Assembly: GCF_053078305.1 (NCBI RefSeq)
Contig: NZ_CP166879.1
Length of the DNA: 64,000 nucleotides
Strand: one strand, 5' to 3'
The notes under the pieces are model-generated. The model saw only the letters and a list, made by a program, of their open reading frames with translations, had not been told where the DNA came from and did no database searches. The translations under genes were made by a program, and so were the position numbers. Positions 3,078 through 24,526 of this stretch are shown one piece after another (the stretch's first letter is position 1; each line of letters starts with the position of its first letter).

Positions 3078-5597
3078 TTAAAAATCAGCCTGATTCGGGA
3101 ACAGTTTTTGCCAGATAACTGAAACGTATTTTGCCTGGTAACGCGCATCGTGCAGGGCATTATGGCGTTCACCCTCAAATGTGATGACGTTGCGGGCATC
3201 GAAATCCATCACCAGTCCCAGGGCAACAATCGTTCTTACATCACGATCGTTGTAGTGACGCCACGGGCAGGGGATTTCTTGTCGTTTATATGAACGGCTT
3301 AAAATTACGTTGTCGAAGTTGGCTCCATTTCCCCAGACCTGAACAAAAAACTCACCGGAGTTTTCGTCTATAAATTCCCGTAATTGTAAAAGCGCATCAT
3401 CAAGCGGTATTCGATCAGCTAAAATGGCGGCACGGGCTTCGCCAGAGCGTTGAAGCCACCATTCGATGGTGCTTATGTCTACAGTGCCACCACATGTATC
3501 CATATCAATTATTTTGCTGAATTCTGGCCCCAGTTCTCCGGTTTGCGGATCGAAAAAGACTGCGCCTATTGAGGCTATTGGTGCGTCAGGATTTTTGCCC
3601 ATCGTTTCAAGGTCAATCATCAGGTGATCCCACATTCTGCTGGTGGATGTGCTTTCACGATGACCGTTCACCTTAATTAAGGGATTTGCTGTCTCGCCTG
3701 TTTCATTATTGCCATTGGCATGTTGATCGCCTTCGGTGCACTCCTTGTTCGGGTGTCCGGCACTTTCCATTTCCTCCAGATCTTTTTCCCGGGCTTCATC
3801 CTGGCTTTCTTCGTTGAATGTCTCCTGGTATGTTGCGTCGCCCATCACCGCGCCACAGTCAGGACAGTTGCCGCCACCGCTCTGACCGCAGGCGGTGCAG
3901 ACTTTTTCCTCTTCCTGTTGCGCTACTGGTTCGGATTGTTTCGTTTCTGGCTCGTCTTGTAACGCATTTTGGCTGTTTTGTTCTGCTTTCTGGTCGTTCT
4001 GTTCCGTTTCTTGCTGGTTCTGGTTCACAGAATCGCAGGTTTCAATCCCCTTAACCCATTTCGAATCATTCGGGTCGCTAATCCCTTCAACAAACTCACC
4101 ACGGGAAGCGGCAAGCAATTTGTCGGCATCTGGTCGACTGATGTCTGCTGCCTCCATAATTTTATTTACTTCTTCAGCAGTAACTTTTACCTGTGACTTG
4201 TCATCCAGCGGCTGCGGGTCCTGATGATGTTCAACTGTATCCGCTGCCATTGTTTCAGCCGTTGCCTGTTCATCTGCCATTGCGCCAGATGGCTGCGGTT
4301 TTTCTTCATCATCCTGTTTTCCTTCTTTTGTTACACGCTGAGGGATAGGGGCAGAGGAGCGACCGCAGGCAATATCCACGATTTCCGGATCAGGGTTGGC
4401 ATGATCGGTTTCGGTCAGTACTTTGTTCAGATATTCGGTAACACGGTGGGGAGTAGCCTCGATACCAATTGGTGCTTCTTTCACGGACGCAACTACTATC
4501 GCGCGGGAATAATCCAGGTGACCAGGCATGGCGATGAATTTGTCACGAAAAACAGAAAAGGGCGGCTTATTCTCTGAAACGATTTCTTCAATGCGTTTGG
4601 CGTGTGCCGGATGTGGATTGTAAATATCGATGTCCATTGAACGGGCCAGAACGCCAGCGGCAACGTCACGTTCCACTGACGCATCATCGTGGACAAAACC
4701 TTCACCGCGATCGGTAAGAATTCCTCCGCCAGCATTAGCGCCGGACGGGGTGCGATTGATTTCAGATACGCAATTTCCCTTTGCCCACTCTTTTGTCAAC
4801 AGCCCCTGATCAAGGTAGTCAGTCTTCATCCAGGTGGAAATGAACTTGTCGAATTCTGCCGGGCTGATACGGCGTGTTGTTGCGTGAGTGAATGCCTTTT
4901 CCACCGAATGCGCCAGTCTTCCAAGATGATGGTTTGTCAGCTTATCCAGCTCAGGATGCGAACGTACTGCAGTAAGCAGGCTCTGTATGTTTCCATCTTC
5001 CATATCCATTTCGATGCGGATCACGTCCTTGCGTTGTTCTGGTGTGGCGTGATGTTTGTATTTCTCGTCGAACTCCTGACCAAAGAAGTAGAGGTGCAGG
5101 AAGCGATGGGTAAGACTCAGGGTGGAGACGGGGATTTCACATTCAGGGCAGTCATCGTTGCTGTCCGGGGATTCGCTTTTATCTGCGTTCTCTGTCTGAG
5201 AGTCACTTTGTTCATCGCAGTCACGGCTGACACCTGTAACAGCTTCGCCGCTGGTATTGTCAGTGCTGGCAGGTTTGTCCTGAGCTGAAGGGGAAGGAGC
5301 TATAAATATCATTGTGATACCATCTTCCCCGCCTTTTTCGTAACGGTTGCAGAATTCAGTATCAAACACGCCTTCTGGAGGAAGGTCATTCACAACGGGT
5401 AAATGGACGCGAACAGGTTTTTTAAAGTCGTCCTCGTCATAATCATTATCATCCATTGCGGTAATGCAGCGGGAGATGGCAACAGATAATTTTTTTGCTG
5501 TAGTCCAGTAAAAACCACCTTTAATCCCAAGGCGTTTTCTGACCTTGTCATTTTTTGCTTCGCAATATAGTGCAAAAGTTTCTTTATCAGTGCTCAT
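3078..5597 (-). CDS. Large early protein with C-terminal DEDDh-type 3'-5' exonuclease domain
   Basis: 839 aa. C-terminus has MIDLETMG...WGNGANFDNVIL...HNALHDARYQA (DnaQ-like Exo I-III motifs). An acidic Q/E-rich linker and a CTACG..CPDCG zinc ribbon lie in the middle. Confidence 0.6.
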   Translation of the reverse strand: MSTDKETFALYCEAKNDKVRKRLGIKGGFYWTTAKKLSVAISRCITAMDDNDYDEDDFKKPVRVHLPVVNDLPPEGVFDTEFCNRYEKGGEDGITMIFIAPSPSAQDKPASTDNTSGEAVTGVSRDCDEQSDSQTENADKSESPDSNDDCPECEIPVSTLSLTHRFLHLYFFGQEFDEKYKHHATPEQRKDVIRIEMDMEDGNIQSLLTAVRSHPELDKLTNHHLGRLAHSVEKAFTHATTRRISPAEFDKFISTWMKTDYLDQGLLTKEWAKGNCVSEINRTPSGANAGGGILTDRGEGFVHDDASVERDVAAGVLARSMDIDIYNPHPAHAKRIEEIVSENKPPFSVFRDKFIAMPGHLDYSRAIVVASVKEAPIGIEATPHRVTEYLNKVLTETDHANPDPEIVDIACGRSSAPIPQRVTKEGKQDDEEKPQPSGAMADEQATAETMAADTVEHHQDPQPLDDKSQVKVTAEEVNKIMEAADISRPDADKLLAASRGEFVEGISDPNDSKWVKGIETCDSVNQNQQETEQNDQKAEQNSQNALQDEPETKQSEPVAQQEEEKVCTACGQSGGGNCPDCGAVMGDATYQETFNEESQDEAREKDLEEMESAGHPNKECTEGDQHANGNNETGETANPLIKVNGHRESTSTSRMWDHLMIDLETMGKNPDAPIASIGAVFFDPQTGELGPEFSKIIDMDTCGGTVDISTIEWWLQRSGEARAAILADRIPLDDALLQLREFIDENSGEFFVQVWGNGANFDNVILSRSYKRQEIPCPWRHYNDRDVRTIVALGLVMDFDARNVITFEGERHNALHDARYQAKYVSVIWQKLFPNQADF

Positions 5598-17165: not shown

Positions 17166-17525
17166 ATGCTCATAGATTTGGTTTTACCTTACCCGCCGAC
17201 GGTGAACACTTACTGGCGACGCCGTGGCAGCACATATTTTGTATCAAAAGCAGGGGAGCGTTATCGCCGGGCAGTGGCACTTATTGTTCGCCAGCAGCGG
17301 CTGAAATTAAGCCTGTCCGGACGGCTGGCAATAAAAATTATTGCAGAGCCACCGGATAAGCGTCGTCGTGACCTGGACAATATTCTGAAAGCACCGCTGG
17401 ATGCGCTGACGCATGCGGGAGTGCTCATTGATGACGAGCAGTTTGATGAAATCAATATTGTACGTGGTCAGCTTGTTCCTGGTGGTCGGTTGGGTGTGAA
17501 GATTTACAAAATTGAGAGTGAGTGA
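17166..17525 (+). CDS. rusA: RusA Holliday-junction resolvase
   Basis: LPYPPTVNTYW...RRRDLDNILKAPLDALTHAGVLIDDEQ, the RusA signature. Confidence 0.85.
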   Translation: MLIDLVLPYPPTVNTYWRRRGSTYFVSKAGERYRRAVALIVRQQRLKLSLSGRLAIKIIAEPPDKRRRDLDNILKAPLDALTHAGVLIDDEQFDEINIVRGQLVPGGRLGVKIYKIESE

Positions 17526-18094
17526 GCGTAAATATGATATATCCGGAAATTACAGGCAAAAGCGGCGAACATTTACGCCTGAACACGCTGGAAGCAGTCT
17601 GGATCCAGGGGAAATTACGGATGTGGGGGCGGTGGTCGTATATCGGTGGGGGTAAATCCGGAAATATGTTTAACCGGTTACTGGTTTCGAAGAAGCTGAC
17701 GAAAACAGCAGTTAATGAGGTTTTACGCAGAATGAAGAAATCCGGGCTGGAAAAACCGGAACTTGAGGCATTTTTTCGGGATATGACCAGAGGGAAGCAG
17801 AAGAGCTGGTTGTCACATTGTACAGACACAGAGGCGTTGATTATTGATCGCGTTATCAGTGAGGTGCTTGGGGAATATCCCGGGCTAATCAATATTCTCC
17901 GGCAAAGGTACGAAGGACGGGGAATGAGCAAACTGAAAATGGCCGAAAGGTTAAATGCAGATCATCCTGAGTGGACGTTGGTTACGTGCAGACGCCGAAT
18001 TGATCAGTGGTTGGGGATATCTGAATTTATGTTACATGCCCCCATGCGTATGGCTTTTGTTACAGAGAAAAAAATGTTGCAAACTGATCAATAA
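17522..18094 (+). CDS. Late antiterminator Q (phage-82/Qin type)
   Basis: 190 aa after rusA. Contains WIQGKLRMWGRWSYIGGG...ILRQRYEGRG, an AntitermQ-like pattern. A promoter/terminator region follows. Confidence 0.7.
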   Translation: MSVNMIYPEITGKSGEHLRLNTLEAVWIQGKLRMWGRWSYIGGGKSGNMFNRLLVSKKLTKTAVNEVLRRMKKSGLEKPELEAFFRDMTRGKQKSWLSHCTDTEALIIDRVISEVLGEYPGLINILRQRYEGRGMSKLKMAERLNADHPEWTLVTCRRRIDQWLGISEFMLHAPMRMAFVTEKKMLQTDQ

Positions 18095-18165
18095 ACTGCT
18101 TCAATCCGTATAAGCTTCGCAAGGCTGTATCGCGAGGCGAAACGCAAGTTTTTTCGCACAAGGAA

Positions 18166-18187
18166 GCCACCGGAAGGTGGTTTTTTT
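18166..18187 (+). terminator. tR'-like intrinsic terminator downstream of Q
   Basis: GCCACC-GGAA-GGTGG followed by T7. Confidence 0.6.
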
Positions 18188-18310
18188 GTGTCCGTAATAT
18201 ACAGCAGCGCAATAAATTCGCTGGTGGTTATTAATACCGTTCTTTCAGCTTGCTGGCTTGTTCGACAAGAGTTATTGGTGTGTCACGTTAACCGGAAAAA
18301 GGAAAAAGAC

Positions 18311-18508
18311 ATGCTGAAACAGCAGGATATGACCGAAACCGCCAGAGTGGTGTTTAATGAATTAAGCGTCACAGAACCGGCGACAGTCGGGGAGATTGCG
18401 CAGAATACTTACCTTTCACGCGAACGCTGTCAGTTAATACTGACCCAGCTGGTTATGGCGGGTCTGGCAGACTATCAGTTCGGTTGTTACAGACGCCTTC
18501 AGTCCTGA
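18311..18508 (+). CDS. Hypothetical small wHTH-like protein
   Basis: 65 aa (MLKQQDMTETARV...), followed by hairpin terminator 18495-18518. Confidence 0.35.
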   Translation: MLKQQDMTETARVVFNELSVTEPATVGEIAQNTYLSRERCQLILTQLVMAGLADYQFGCYRRLQS

Positions 18509-18658
18509 AGGCTTTTTTATTTGTGGTAAATGGGCGGCTGGTGGGTGTTAGGGGCACTCACCAGCCATCTGCTCATGCGTCCGGATCACAAGCAAACCTC
18601 AGGCCCACTGCTTTGCGCAAAAGCAGAATGAGCCTATCAGAGACAGGCTTAATGATCC

Positions 18659-19717
18659 ATGCTTAATACTGTAAAAATATCCAGTTGTGAGTTAATCAAC
18701 GCCGACTGCCTGGCATTTATCCGGTCGTTACCCGAAAATTCTGTTGACCTGATAGTCACGGACCCGCCGTACTTTAAAGTGAAGCCTGAGGGCTGGGATA
18801 ACCAGTGGAAGGGCGACGATGATTACCTGAAGTGGCTGGACCAGTGTCTTGCGCAGTTCTGGCGGGTGCTGAAACCTGCCGGAAGTCTTTACCTGTTCTG
18901 TGGCCATCGCCTGGCATCTGATATCGAAATCATGATGCGTGAACGCTTCAGTGTGCTGAACCATATTATCTGGGCAAAGCCGTCCGGACGCTGGAACGGG
19001 TGCAACAAGGAAAGCCTGAGGGCGTATTTCCCCGCCACAGAGCGCATTCTGTTCGCGGAACATTATCAGGGGCCGTATCGTCCGAAAGATGCCGGGTATG
19101 AGGCGAAGGGCAGGGCACTGAAACAGCATGTGATGGCCCCGCTGATTGCTTACTTTCGTGATGCGCGTGCTGCCCTGGGGATAACGGCAAAACAGATTGT
19201 GGATGCCACAGGAAAGAAAAACATGGTGTCGCACTGGTTCAGTGCCAGTCAGTGGCAGCTACCGAACGAAAGCGATTATCTGAAATTACAGGCGCTGTTT
19301 GCCCGGGTGGCAGAAGAGAAGCATCAGCGCGGTGAACTGGAAAAGCCCCACCACCAGCTGCTGGAGACGTATACTTCACTGAACCGGCAGTATGCGGAAC
19401 TGCAGAGTGAATATAAGCATCTGCGGCGGTATTTTGGCGTGACGGCGCAGGTGCCGTACACCGATGTGTGGACGCATAAACCGGTGCAGTACTATCCCGG
19501 GAAACATCCGTGCGAAAAACCGGCAGAAATGCTGCAGCAGATAATCAGCGCGAGCAGTCGTCCGGGGGACCTGGTTGCAGATTTTTTCATGGGGTCGGGT
19601 TCGACAGTCAAAGCCGCGATGGCGCTGGGGCGTCGTGCAACTGGCGTTGAGCTGGAGACTGAACGTTTTGAGCAGACGGTCAGGGAAGTACAGGATTTAG
19701 CCAGTCAGAACGGATGA
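18659..19717 (+). CDS. Beta-class N6/N4 DNA methyltransferase
   Basis: DPPY motif near the N-terminus (LIVTDPPYF) and FMGSGST near the C-terminus. Same position as the methylase upstream of tRNAs in Stx-type phages. Confidence 0.8.
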   Translation: MLNTVKISSCELINADCLAFIRSLPENSVDLIVTDPPYFKVKPEGWDNQWKGDDDYLKWLDQCLAQFWRVLKPAGSLYLFCGHRLASDIEIMMRERFSVLNHIIWAKPSGRWNGCNKESLRAYFPATERILFAEHYQGPYRPKDAGYEAKGRALKQHVMAPLIAYFRDARAALGITAKQIVDATGKKNMVSHWFSASQWQLPNESDYLKLQALFARVAEEKHQRGELEKPHHQLLETYTSLNRQYAELQSEYKHLRRYFGVTAQVPYTDVWTHKPVQYYPGKHPCEKPAEMLQQIISASSRPGDLVADFFMGSGSTVKAAMALGRRATGVELETERFEQTVREVQDLASQNG

Positions 19718-19757
19718 TATTGCAGTATTAGTTACGTACCGTTATTATCCTGCACCC

Positions 19758-19833
19758 GGCCCTTTAGCTCAGTGGTGAGAGCGAGCGACTCATAATCGCC
19801 AGGTCGCTGGTTCAAATCCAGCAAGGGCCACCA
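19758..19833 (+). tRNA. ileZ: tRNA with CAU anticodon (Ile2/Met, ileZ-like)
   Basis: Cloverleaf folded by hand: acceptor GGCCCTT/AAGGGCC, anticodon loop CTCATAA, T-loop TTCAAAT, encoded CCA. Confidence 0.85.
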
Positions 19834-19842
19834 TATCACATA

Positions 19843-19919
19843 CCGCCATTAGCTCATCGGGACAGAGCGTCAGCCTTCGAAGCTGGTTGCGCGGGGTTCG
19901 AGTCCTCGATGGCGGTCCA
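19843..19919 (+). tRNA. argN: tRNA-Arg (UCG)
   Basis: Acceptor CCGCCAT/ATGGCGG, anticodon loop CTTCGAA, T-loop TTCGAGT, encoded CCA. Confidence 0.8.
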
Positions 19920-19932
19920 TTATCGGTATTCA

Positions 19933-20009
19933 GCGTTGTTAGCTCAGCCGGACAGAGCAATTGCCTTCTAAGCAATCGGTCACTGGTTCGAATCCAGTAC
20001 AACGCGCCA
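19933..20009 (+). tRNA. argO: tRNA-Arg (UCU)
   Basis: Acceptor GCGTTGT/ACAACGC, anticodon loop CTTCTAA, T-loop TTCGAAT, encoded CCA. Confidence 0.85.
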
Positions 20010-20178
20010 TACTTATTTTTCTGGCTCGCTTTTGCGGGCCTTTTTTGTATCCGCGCCACGCCCGGCGCATATCAACCACAGAGCCTTTCGGGGGTGAGCT
20101 TACGGAGTGGTCAGTGTGACTTTCTCTGTGGGCAGATCGCTCCCGGGCGTTGGCTCACCCACCCAAAGGAACGTCACG

Positions 20179-20610
20179 ATGTTTGGTATTTTCAAAAAGA
20201 AAACCCGCAGAGCAGCAACGGAAATTAAAAAGTTTGAGAAACGCGATCTGGCACAGGCGGTTATTAATGCTGCCTACCTGGTAGCCTATGCAGATGGTGA
20301 ATGTGAGGCTTCAGAGAAAGCGAAGATCGAACAGGTATTACGTAACCAGCCTGCGTTGTCCGCGTTTACGTCAGAAATTAATGCCATCAGTGCCACGATC
20401 ACAGGTCAGCTTGACACCAACTTTAAAATTGGTCGTCGAGCGGCGTTGCGTGAAATTGAAGATGTGAAACACGATACGCGTGAAGCGGAAGATGTGCTGG
20501 ATGTGGCGGTGGCTATTGCTGAAGCAGATGGTGAAATTGAGCCGGAAGAGCGTAAGGTTCTGGAAGAGATTGCAGGTGTTCTTGGCCTGCGACTGGAGAA
20601 CCACCTGTGA
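20179..20610 (+). CDS. TerB-like (tellurite-resistance TerB fold) protein
   Basis: 143 aa with two ADGE..E.E acidic repeats (AYADGECEASEKAKI; AEADGEIEPEERKVL), typical of TerB-family metal-binding helices. Confidence 0.5.
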   Translation: MFGIFKKKTRRAATEIKKFEKRDLAQAVINAAYLVAYADGECEASEKAKIEQVLRNQPALSAFTSEINAISATITGQLDTNFKIGRRAALREIEDVKHDTREAEDVLDVAVAIAEADGEIEPEERKVLEEIAGVLGLRLENHL

Positions 20611-20771
20611 CGGTAAAACTGCGTCTGGCCGCTGTGGCACTCCTGCTGTTTCTGGTGGTGATGGTGGATTTCACCAGCAGGATCATGTCGGTGCTGGCGG
20701 ATGGAGTGCTGGTGGTCGGTATTGTGGTGGTGCTTTTTCCTTTGGTGAAAAAGGACATGCCAGGTAGTTAG
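20607..20771 (+). CDS. 54-aa two-TM membrane peptide coupled to the TerB-like gene
   Basis: GTG overlaps the TerB stop (GTGA). Sequence MTVKLRLAAVALLLFLVVMVDF...GVLVVGIVVVLFPLV. Confidence 0.4.
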   Translation: MTVKLRLAAVALLLFLVVMVDFTSRIMSVLADGVLVVGIVVVLFPLVKKDMPGS

Positions 20772-21072
20772 CCGGGTATCAGTCATGCCCCGAAAATTTT
20801 AAATGTCTCACAATTCAGACGGTTGACAGTTGTCTGTTTTGCGGGGAGTTTGTTAAAAGAAACTGGCATGGTGAATCCCCCTGAGCGGAGGGGCGACTGG
20901 TGCATTAGGTGTTATCTTTGATACCTAGGAAAGTGAACGCGCGGGTTTGGTTGCACCGGGCTGAACTCACCGGGAGGCACCCGGCATCATGCGCATGATG
21001 ATACAGATACGCGGCTTTAGCCCCTCTCCGGAGGGGCTTTTATATGAATTTTGTAAGATATGAGTAAACTAA

Positions 21073-21408
21073 TTATGGACACTGTTGTTTTAGTCCGTAA
21101 GGGCATATTTGCAGAATGCAATGATTATTAAAGCATTCTTTCAATACGTTATCTGAATTTGCAGGACATTCCTGGCTGTTTTTGATTAAATCCCAGAATC
21201 TTTTATTGAATGGTACAACGTTGTAAATGGTTACAGGTAGCACTTTGTTATTAAGTACGATACCTGTGTGAGTCAACGTAAATATACTTTCAGGAGGTAA
21301 GAAAACATCCGATTGATACCAGATTATTAATTTTATTTTACTCCATATGGCTGAAAAAGATATTCCGCATGATGGCTGGATAACTGTATCAATCACAATC
21401 CACTTCAT
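21073..21408 (-). CDS. Hypothetical protein in an AT-rich moron
   Basis: 111-aa ORF on the opposite strand to the late operon. Local AT-rich block spans 21060-21650. Confidence 0.35.
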
Positions 21409-21661
21409 TTAGCCTCCTTATTTATGCTGTGCTGGTGATGTTCTGAAAAGTATAAATGATAATTTTGAATGTAAACCATAGAGCAGAATTATTTTTCTGA
21501 TGTTGTTTATTTAAATACAGGTTTTTTATATCCCGTCTTGTAGTTTATCCATGCATACCTGCTTTATGATGAGGTTTTCATTTAAGGTATGGTTTTGTGT
21601 TTTTTTCTGTATTTCATGTCAGGTATTTTAAAGAATTGTTTTTAATATGGTGGAAAGAACC

Positions 21662-23629
21662 ATGGCATTTAAACACTACGATGTGGTCAGGGCGGCGTCG
21701 CCGTCAGACCTTGCGGAGCGACTGACTCAAAAACTGAAGGAGGGGTGGCAGCCATTTGGCAGTCCTGTCGCCATCACGCCTTATACCCTGATGCAGGCCA
21801 TTGCGGCGGAAGGTGATGTCACCACACCTGTGCTGGTGAAGCCGTCGGATGGAGAAGGCACAGTTATCAGCACCACCAGCGAACCGGAGTATTACTTTGT
21901 TGTTGTTCTGGCGGGGCAGTCAAACAGCATGGCATATGGTGAAGGCCTTCCGCTGCCGGAGACATATGACCGTCCGGACCCGCGTATTAAGCAGCTGGCG
22001 CGCCGCAGTACGGTGACACCGGGCGGTGCCGCCTGTAAGTATAACGACATTATTCCGGCGGACCATTGTCTGCATGATGTGCAGGACATGAGCCGTCTTA
22101 ACCATCCGAAAGCGAACCTGTCAAAGGGGCAGTACGGAACCGTGGGGCAGGGGCTGCATATCGGCAAAAAACTGCTGCCGTTTATACCGGCGAATGCGGG
22201 CATTCTGCTGGTTCCGTGCTGCCGTGGTGCTTCGGCATTCACAACGGGTGCAGACGGCACATACAGCGAATCAGCCGGTGCATCGGAAAATTCACTGCGC
22301 TGGGGTGTGGGTAAGCCGCTGTATCAGGATTTGGTGAGCCGGACTAAAGCCGCACTGGCGAAGAACCCGAAAAACCGTCTGCTTGCGGTGGTGTGGATGC
22401 AGGGAGAAGGTGATGCGGCAGTGGGGACGCATGCGCAGCATCCGGGGCTGTTTAGTGCGATGGTGAATCAGTTCAGAACGGAGCTTGCCGGTCTGGCATC
22501 ACAGAGCACAGGAGGCAGCGCATCAGCGGTACCGTGGATTTGCGGGGACACAACGTATTTCTGGAAGCAGCGTCATGCGGAAGGGTATGCATCAGTATAC
22601 GGAGGGTATAAGGGTAAGGAGTCGCAGAACATTTTCTTTGTACCGTTAATGACGGATGAGAATGGTGCGAATGTGCAGACCAATGACCCGGCAGAAGACC
22701 CGGACCTGGAAGCCGTCGGTTATTACGGTTCAAAGTGGCGTAATGACCAGAAGACCTGGACATCTGTGGACAGGGCAAGCCATTTCAGTTCATGGGCACG
22801 CCGTGGGATTATTTCCGACCGTCTGGCAACGGCGATTCTGGTGCATGCCGGGAGAACTGCTGAATTCATTACCGGAAAACAGCCTGATACGGTGAAGCCC
22901 ACCGGACCTTCCGGTGAAGGCCCGGAGAGAGAGCCGGAAGCCCCGGTCAGTAACCGAACCCTGATGAGTCTGCTGGCGTCCGGTGAAGACCTGGCATCAC
23001 AGGGCTGGCGCTATTATCACAAACCGGCGAGCGGAGACAATGTTGATAAAAACATCGCTGAGGCTGTGGTCAGTGATGAGGGTGCCACCGGTGGTAAGGC
23101 CCTGCAACTGAACAAACCGGAAAGCCACATCTGGTTTCTGGAGCATGATGCCGCCGGGCAGGGGGCAGAGTTGCTGAAGAAAGGCGGACGTGTGAGCGTA
23201 CGGTTTAAGGTGCCGGGCTCACTGGTGCCGAATCAGTTTGCCCTGGGTATTTACTGGCAGTTGTCGTCCCTGCCGGAGGGAGTGACGCTGGCAGAGGAAG
23301 GCAACGACATGCTGATGTCCTTCTTCCTGCAGACGGATGCGACGAACCTGAACGCGATGTACCACAAGAAGCAGAATGCGAAGCTGGATACGTTCGGGGT
23401 CTTTGATAACGGATGGCACACACTGGCTTTTGAGTTTGCCGGAAACAACAGCATTCAGGTGACGCCGGTACTGGATGAGAAACGGGGTACACCGTTCACA
23501 CTGGTGAAATCTCCGGCATCAGGGGCGGCGGACAAACTGCAACTGACAGGCATATCAAAGGCGGCGACATATACGTTGCTGATTGACAGTGTGAAGGTGG
23601 AAGTGAACAACGCGGACGCCGCGGCATGA
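21662..23629 (+). CDS. nanS-p: Prophage sialate O-acetylesterase NanS-p (DUF1737 + SGNH/SASA esterase + C-terminal lectin-like domain)
   Basis: MAFKHYDVVRAASPSDLAE... N-terminus and the VLAGQSNSMAYGEG esterase motif, as recalled for EHEC prophage NanS-p. Lies in the post-stx position. Confidence 0.75.
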   Translation: MAFKHYDVVRAASPSDLAERLTQKLKEGWQPFGSPVAITPYTLMQAIAAEGDVTTPVLVKPSDGEGTVISTTSEPEYYFVVVLAGQSNSMAYGEGLPLPETYDRPDPRIKQLARRSTVTPGGAACKYNDIIPADHCLHDVQDMSRLNHPKANLSKGQYGTVGQGLHIGKKLLPFIPANAGILLVPCCRGASAFTTGADGTYSESAGASENSLRWGVGKPLYQDLVSRTKAALAKNPKNRLLAVVWMQGEGDAAVGTHAQHPGLFSAMVNQFRTELAGLASQSTGGSASAVPWICGDTTYFWKQRHAEGYASVYGGYKGKESQNIFFVPLMTDENGANVQTNDPAEDPDLEAVGYYGSKWRNDQKTWTSVDRASHFSSWARRGIISDRLATAILVHAGRTAEFITGKQPDTVKPTGPSGEGPEREPEAPVSNRTLMSLLASGEDLASQGWRYYHKPASGDNVDKNIAEAVVSDEGATGGKALQLNKPESHIWFLEHDAAGQGAELLKKGGRVSVRFKVPGSLVPNQFALGIYWQLSSLPEGVTLAEEGNDMLMSFFLQTDATNLNAMYHKKQNAKLDTFGVFDNGWHTLAFEFAGNNSIQVTPVLDEKRGTPFTLVKSPASGAADKLQLTGISKAATYTLLIDSVKVEVNNADAAA

Positions 23630-24234: not shown

Positions 24235-24310
24235 GCATGCGCAAGGGACCATCGGTGTGTGCCGGTGGTCTTTATATTGTTGTGAGCTTCCGGATTGCGG
24301 GAGACGGGGT

Positions 24311-24526
24311 ATGTACCAGATGGAAAAAATCACAACAGGTGTGTCATACACCACGTCAGCGGTGGGAACGGGCTACTGGTTCCTGCAGTTGCTGGACAGG
24401 GTTTCCCCGTCTCAGTGGGCGGCAATAGGCGTGCTGGGGAGTCTGCTGTTTGGTCTGCTGACATACCTGACGAACCTGTATTTTAAAATCAGAGAAGACC
24501 GGCGTAAGGCGGCCCGGGGAGAGTAA
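24311..24526 (+). CDS. S: Holin S (dual-start motif)
   Basis: [29 protein letters not shown]...[25 protein letters not shown] matches recalled Stx-phage holin. Met codons at 24311 and 24320. Confidence 0.8.

Follow-up and report, generated by a model that had tools for sequence, protein, structure and literature searches.

Genes of the tci group are known from phage P1, where tciA, tciB and a third gene, tciC (35 aa, one TM segment), belong to the C1-repressed ban operon, an early unit placed beside tRNAs and ban. All three are nonessential in P1 according to CRISPRi, implying that any benefit of these genes is conditional, and a preprint on the P1vir transcriptome lists tciA and tciB among "cell-division control genes" and records their deregulation in an hfq mutant. 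Phage genome papers call the tci role unknown, one of them, without experiments, judging tellurite resistance unlikely; no experiment on the function of tciA or tciB was found in the literature searched, which offers annotations and speculation only. Related TerB proteins are encoded in ter clusters, organized as terZABCDE(F), where the membrane partner is multi-pass TerC; TerB itself has been reported to be membrane-associated or amphitropic. Tellurite resistance of Y. pestis was assigned to terCDE, and terZAB cause filamentation, also in E. coli. TerB-like proteins are combined with membrane-associated partner(s) in the anti-phage systems Dionysus (DinA/DinB/DinC), Shango (SngA/B/C) and Bunzi (BnzA/B), for which "membrane surveillance" was proposed as the role of the TerB domain. 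One more relative is E. coli co-chaperone DjlA, whose TerB-like domain is held at the inner membrane.

Here, we addressed a window of 64,000 nucleotides, i.e., the whole stretch of contig NZ_CP166879.1 (assembly GCF_053078305.1) taken for analysis, in which the initial annotation had noticed a TerB-like protein and a translationally coupled two-TM peptide occupying the position of stxAB in Stx phages. These two ORFs constitute a regular copy of the known and already annotated phage accessory module tciA-tciB in its usual place; the pair corresponds to tciA/tciB of phage P1 (PHROGs 632 and 1470) and is no oddity of the stx slot. The locus comprises the following features:

17522-18094, plus strand: Q-like late antiterminator gene, 190 aa (Pfam DUF1133, 346 bits, E=4e-104; Phage_antitermQ, 32.3 bits at a cut-off of 26)
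18167-18190, plus strand: candidate tR' hairpin, the first after Q, CCACCGGAAGGTGG then seven T; read from the sequence, function putative
18495-18512, plus strand: second terminator-like hairpin, after a 65-aa ORF, 7 pairs, then TTTTTTATTT
18659-19717, plus strand: DNA N6/N4 methyltransferase (Pfam N6_N4_Mtase, E=6e-44)
19758-20009, plus strand: three tRNAs, CAT, Arg-TCG and Arg-TCT (ARAGORN)
20023-20040, plus strand: terminator-like hairpin right after the tRNAs (terminator scan), common to Stx2 phages and lying inside the 97%-identical block described below
20058-20803, plus strand: tciAB cassette, without homology to the Stx2a phage and standing in for its stx2AB segment (blastn versus LC567829)
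20179-20610, plus strand: tciA, 143 aa, TerB family; basic N-terminal tail and acidic six-helix TerB domain with two ADGxxxxxE motifs
20607-20771, plus strand: tciB, 54 aa, two-TM peptide, DUF3927; its GTG start overlaps the tciA stop (GTGA)
20837-21049, plus strand: prophage sRNA gene of the STnc100/PasD family (Rfam RF02076, 140.9 bits at a gathering threshold of 47, full length)
21073-21408, minus strand: iraM, anti-adapter (NCBIfam PRK09919, 161 bits at a cut-off of 121; GC 34%)
21647-23629, plus strand: nanS-p, sialate O-acetyl esterase, the next late gene (Pfam DUF1737, SASA, DUF6645)

Profiles, tRNA calls and the terminator scan thus confirm the originally proposed order of Q, terminator, methylase, three tRNAs, the pair and nanS-p; every gene listed there is in place, but the order was not complete, as the STnc100 sRNA and iraM between the pair and nanS-p had been left out. 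The position of the Q-like gene matches that of DUF1133/Q genes in homologous prophages. The stem at 18167-18190, assigned by us to the plus strand, is placed by the terminator scan on the minus strand. The CAT tRNA (19758-19833, plus strand) is called Met by ARAGORN, and its RefSeq homologues in related prophages are annotated as lysidine-modified tRNA-Ile of ileZ type. The sRNA gene, the right-hand neighbour of the tciAB cassette, has its own terminator at 21019-21038. A 2026 preprint reports TerB (PF05099) among conserved neighbours of prophage sRNAs PasA and PasC, and finds PasD, an STnc100 relative, directly upstream of a sialate esterase gene; the succession of sRNA and nanS-p in the window matches this PasD-esterase arrangement. 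IraM, which stabilises RpoS, is encoded on the opposite strand inside the late region and follows stx2B in some Stx2a phages; promoter-like sites of the minus strand are seen near its gene at 21515-21488 (upstream) and 21357-21330 (inside the 5′ end). No ORF of at least 30 aa that might represent tciC lies between tciB and the sRNA gene, and, as tciC is seen only in P1, the module is not defined by it. A holin-like ORF of class II is found within 24257-24526, placing the lysis cassette about 3.5 kb downstream of the pair, and holin and lysozyme genes follow in homologous prophages. In the collection of complete E. coli genomes, the best one covers at most 64% of window positions 10000-34000 with about 96% identity; the prophage is a mosaic without a complete counterpart among them.

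The tciA gene begins with ATG at 20179, preceded by AAGGA 8 nt upstream, and is terminated by TGA at 20608-20610. The program-made ORF list takes this frame out to GTG at 20107; the length of 143 aa is the correct one because homologues all start with MFG or MLG where the ATG sits. The GTG codon of tciB (20607) falls within the stop codon of tciA and has GGAG 9 nt upstream, the reading frame being closed by TAG at 20769-20771. Both ORFs are therefore present at the positions and with the sizes initially given (143 and 54 aa), the coupling ascribed to the two-TM peptide is borne out by the GTGA overlap, and its two-TM nature by two hydrophobic segments in its translation. A chance-ORF reading was considered for either frame and excluded by Pfam and PHROG scores of TciA and TciB.

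For TciA, the profile search that had been recommended for the TerB assignment gave 61.3 bits with Pfam TerB (PF05099) against a cut-off of 24.4 (E=1.3e-16), i.e., above the gathering threshold, with positions 2-109 of the 118-position profile covered. The match to PHROG 632 ("tellurite resistance") embraces 143 of 143 positions (E=1e-69), and residues 14-137 align with Klebsiella TerB (PDB 2jxu, E=9e-8), the fold being all-helical and TerB-like. With this ter-cluster protein TciA shares size, fold, a similar N-terminal segment and both ADGxxxxxE motifs. The paired acidic motifs (A-x-x-D-G-x5-E) are represented by AYADGECEASE (36-46) and AEADGEIEPEE (114-124); among 24 diverse homologues E46, D117 and E124 never vary, and D39 is conserved in at least 90%, and both motifs are kept in homologues down to 27% identity. 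They are proposed ligands of a divalent cation, and metal binding by TciA is putative. The net charge is +7 over the first 22 residues and -13 over the remainder. A weak local similarity to DjlA covers residues 87-138 (NCBIfam PRK09430, 29 bits with a family cut-off of 162), although DjlA has its own TM helix and a J-domain, and TciA has neither.

RefSeq names TciA "tellurite resistance TerB family protein", and such database names, together with annotation of the P1 genes by homology and with likeness to TerB in sequence and fold over the full length, may be taken to mean that the pair provides lysogenic-conversion resistance to stress (tellurite, oxidative, metals, or colicins) in the manner of the ter operon; ter clusters are tied to oxidative-stress tolerance (PMC11003894). 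The genomic surroundings make this reading very unlikely. Unlike ter clusters, the window pair has no terZ, terA, terC, terD, or terE nearby: a single TerB homologue is encoded in the window, and no ter gene is annotated in homologous prophage regions, terC, terD and terE among them. As only a homologue of terB is present and terC, terD and terE are absent from these annotations, tellurite resistance from tciAB is unlikely. The pair is also carried by phage JLK-2012 from O55:H7, a lineage reported to be devoid of the ter island, by virulent phages that never lysogenise, and in the window a crude scan for sigma-70 consensus detected no promoter of its own. TciA differs from TerB of ter clusters in being phage-borne and probably expressed in the lytic cycle, and in having a 54-aa peptide instead of multi-pass TerC as a membrane partner.

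This peptide, TciB, matches Pfam DUF3927 with 59.5 bits (cut-off 25, E=3e-16) and PHROG 1470 ("TciB-like") with E=1.4e-24; its RefSeq name is "DUF3927 family protein". Hydrophobic segments lie at about 5-20 and 27-47 and are separated by a conserved polar turn, DF(T/S)xRxMSxLADG. Lys and Arg are found at both ends, which by the positive-inside rule suggests a predicted inner-membrane hairpin with N-in/C-in topology. The family is small: when 1.84 billion representative proteins were searched with a profile, only 112 relatives were recovered, nearly all of them stand-alone and 45-65 aa long. The few longer relatives were rejected as true fusions, being frameshift or chimeric products. Likewise, database entries joining TerB and DUF3927 look like frameshift or assembly artefacts (out-of-frame junctions in P0005, P0066 and P0286; chimeras in P0249 and P0291) and were not accepted as Rosetta-stone evidence. 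An NCBIfam profile search of the pair for specific functions gave nothing above threshold.

Two TM segments and a holin-like size, along with the location in the late operon a few kb upstream of the holin (the class II holin-like ORF within 24257-24526), might hint at the pair being an accessory for lysis timing, similar to holin/antiholin. We regard it as extremely improbable, since TciB matches no holin family among Pfam and PHROG profiles, the phage already possesses a complete lysis cassette with its own class II holin, and the pair resides away from lysis genes in P1, Pollock, Erwinia jumbo phages and the P1-like clade.

The P1 genes are among the closest known relatives. TciA is 42% identical over the full length by tblastn (43% in global alignment) and TciB 43%; gene order, strand, overlapping stop and start codons and the turn motif DFTSxxxSxLxDG coincide as well. 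The differences concern the third gene and the transcriptional context, which is the C1-controlled early operon in P1 and an apparently Q-dependent late operon in the window.

Is the association of the two genes characteristic of the module as a whole? To describe it, 168 loci were gathered from two IMG/VR scans, phage records and E. coli genomes, and their ORFs were searched with small HMMs made from four TciA-TciB pairs. TciA was found in 167 loci and was accompanied by TciB on the same strand in 162 of them; in all but two of these 162 (160/162) the stop and start codons overlap or abut. The junctions, assigned to GTGA (97 loci), TAATG or TGATG (52) and ATGA (6) types, span seven clusters of TciA delimited at 70% identity. 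Five loci are devoid of TciB. One of them (L043) is uninformative in this respect, as the sequence ends almost directly after tciA. In two others, hydrophobic peptides without a DUF3927 match are encoded directly after tciA: a 26-aa one with a single TM segment (L102, 3414-3494) and one of about 59 aa with two (L141, about 3420-3602). These peptides point to "TerB plus small membrane peptide" as a design wider than the DUF3927 family. No small membrane partner is found downstream of TciA homologues from Vibrio phage K479 and Pseudomonas phage PMBT3; hence, TciB is not obligatory for all TerB-type phage proteins. Allele identities of tciA and tciB are decoupled, suggesting recombination within the pair. 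Counts by codon position across alleles were dropped as evidence of selection, being saturated by distant alleles.

The assumption that the pair fills the stxAB slot proved to be literally true. The leader at 18213-20057 is 97% identical (blastn) to the stx2 leader of Stx2a phage Stx2_EH2201 (LC567829). Homology stops at 20057, which corresponds to position 2346 of the Stx2a locus, 43 nt before stx2A, and restarts at 20804 (position 3671, 42 nt after stx2B); the unmatched segment of LC567829 consists of stx2A-stx2B with short flanks, and iraM and yjhS/nanS-p come next. Given these breakpoints, a single site accommodates either tciAB or stx2AB as its cassette, an exact positional replacement. 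The statement that the window holds no Stx-like ORF also stands, as tblastn of its whole length returned chance matches only (E of at least 0.98). Among E. coli prophages, 84 related loci follow the scheme Q-(methylase)-tRNAs-tciAB-(STnc100)-(iraM)-nanS-p, where brackets denote optional members, and stx is absent within 4 kb from all of them. Cassette DNA matches five phage records, none of which is Stx-converting (0/5), and slot flanks match several hundred records of Stx-converting phages. The two cassettes are alike in carrying two genes and in the identical insertion point, from tRNA-Arg and the terminator to the STnc100-iraM-nanS-p block. There is no relationship between their products: Stx, an AB5 toxin, is exported and freed at lysis, whereas TciA, as a cytoplasmic protein, and TciB, as a peptide of the inner membrane, could act only within the producing cell. 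In two loci, L002 (NZ_CP027312.1, 3418-5831) and L169 (9220-9727), additional small hypothetical genes and one for an HTH protein separate the tRNAs from tciA, so the slot gathers cargo in series as well as by replacement.

In Stx2 phages with such an arrangement, stx2 is transcribed from PR' under the control of Q. Three plus-strand terminator-like hairpins precede tciAB in the window, the nearest terminator downstream being that of the sRNA gene, and the crude consensus scan, blind to weak or non-sigma-70 promoters, matched no sigma-70-like promoter on the plus strand over 17900-21800. The 97%-identical stx2-like leader, the three terminators and the lack of a sigma-70-like match upstream make late transcription of tciAB a reasonable inference from the sequence; low-level read-through in lysogens is possible. 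A possible PR' (TTGCAA, 17 nt, TTCAAT) lies at 18078-18115, before the candidate tR', and a short PR' transcript like the source of StxS in Stx phages could arise there.

The cassette is widespread. Of 5426 complete E. coli genomes, 1240 contain its DNA, at a median of two and a maximum of eight places each; identical TciB is encoded on about 1000 contigs, and identical TciA is present in prophage contigs of IMG/VR. Remnants are encountered too: in L003 (NZ_CP026473.1, 3001-3191) and ExPEC genomes like it, the upstream region and 5′ part of tciA persist over about 160 nt among IS elements, and RefSeq calls the L003 remnant a partial "DUF3927 domain-containing protein". Beyond E. coli prophages, tblastn located TciA in 131 phage records, many of them belonging to virulent phages of Vibrio, Pseudomonas, Erwinia and Salmonella; virulent carriers include N4-like Pollock, FSL SP-058 and SP-076, Vibrio and Pseudomonas phages, and Erwinia jumbo phages. 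The context in other carriers, the C1-repressed operon of P1 included, likewise speaks for lytic-cycle expression: tci genes are codirected with dUTPase and an N4 gp24-like gene in virulent N4-like Pollock, are embedded in a tRNA cluster in Erwinia jumbo phages, and occupy varied early-type regions of temperate phages in the P1-like clade. Of the 82 loci in the clade to which the window belongs, 62 have tciAB adjacent to tRNAs, mostly at a distance of 98 nt, and so do P1 and an Erwinia jumbo phage; a functional link of the pair to tRNAs was nonetheless rejected as a context effect, since such adjacency is seen in only five of the 71 loci assigned to the P1-like clade. The retention of tci genes by virulent phages makes a role serving primarily the lysogen unlikely.

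Occurrence in both virulent and temperate phages with early or late lytic expression would also suit a decoy for counter-defence, that is, a phage TerB homologue that titrates or poisons host Ter, Shango, Bunzi or Dionysus-like systems during infection. Phages commonly encode homologues of defence components, and the predicted homodimer of DinB leaves room for dominant-negative mixing. This reading appears quite improbable to us, considering that TciA gives no match to TerB profiles of PADLOC defence systems, that the conserved membrane partner is not obviously needed for such action, and that known TerB-based systems are mostly those of Pseudomonas, many E. coli hosts being free of them.

The initial annotation suggested abortive-infection-type defence among other roles, and the corresponding version deserves separate attention: TciA as a TerB membrane sensor and TciB as a membrane-disrupting effector may form a minimal anti-phage module (superinfection exclusion or abortive infection) protecting the lysogen, or an already infected cell, from competing phages. 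TerB domains are indeed part of validated systems, namely Shango (SngA), Bunzi (BnzA) and Dionysus (DinB with the 4-TM pore-forming DinC), and the combination of a TerB protein with a small TM protein recalls the last of these. Moreover, defence genes often occupy accessory slots of prophages, and the ter cluster of R478 is reported to confer phage inhibition and colicin resistance. Comparison with defence profiles is less favourable. PADLOC found only a weak partial match of TciA to PDC-S48 (E=0.002, 35 residues) and none for TciB; Shango and Bunzi profiles of PADLOC 2.0.0 gave no match to TciAB, and Dionysus (2025), being outside this release, was compared by gene content only. The helicase/ATPase and pore-forming-toxin partners are missing: the TerB defence systems have helicase, ATPase, MAEBL and pore-forming-toxin partners and belong to host defence islands, whereas the tci pair is phage-borne and has tRNAs, the sRNA, iraM and nanS-p as neighbours, none of them a defence partner gene. 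Expression in the lysogen is disfavoured by Q-dependent terminators here and by C1 repression of the operon in P1, and carriage by strictly virulent phages is compatible solely with exclusion of competitors by an infecting phage. The suggestion of abortive-infection-type defence thus found no direct support, as no PADLOC system matched and the expression context speaks against activity in the lysogen; an anti-phage role of the pair in general is unlikely.

All four alternatives agree less well with the expression context and the distribution than does a lytic-cycle, inner-membrane-associated TerB module made of TciA and TciB, which we consider the best explanation, with a probability of about 0.5. 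According to this explanation, the pair is a swappable cassette of the late operon, allelic to stxAB, and is most probably transcribed only in lytic growth, when Q-modified polymerase starting from PR' reads through the three upstream terminators. Translation of TciB is coupled to that of TciA, so that the two proteins are produced together and in fixed proportion. By analogy with TerB and TerC of ter operons, and in line with the basic N-terminal tail of TciA, TciA may act with TciB, as its putative partner, at the cytoplasmic face of the inner membrane. There it would alter the physiology of the membrane, ions or envelope, and possibly cell division, in a cell committed to lysis. Such altered host physiology might favour phage production. 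The pair alone would give no tellurite resistance and would not serve as an immunity system expressed in the lysogen.

A more specific proposal, decidedly unlikely in our estimation, is that TciA-TciB represents a minimal self-contained TerB unit of "membrane surveillance" operating in lytic growth, where it would exclude competitors or neutralise TerB-based immunity of the host. If true, it would offer the simplest tractable TerB model, with a metal-gated contact between a TerB domain and a two-helix membrane peptide.

In practical terms, the prophage of the window is a non-toxigenic relative of Stx phages equipped with routine cargo. The tciAB cassette itself, allelic to stxAB, is very common: roughly one in four complete E. 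coli genomes has it, often in multiple copies. TerB function has been under question since the 1990s, and TerB domains now appear in validated anti-phage systems; the two-gene phage version would provide a convenient handle on this function.
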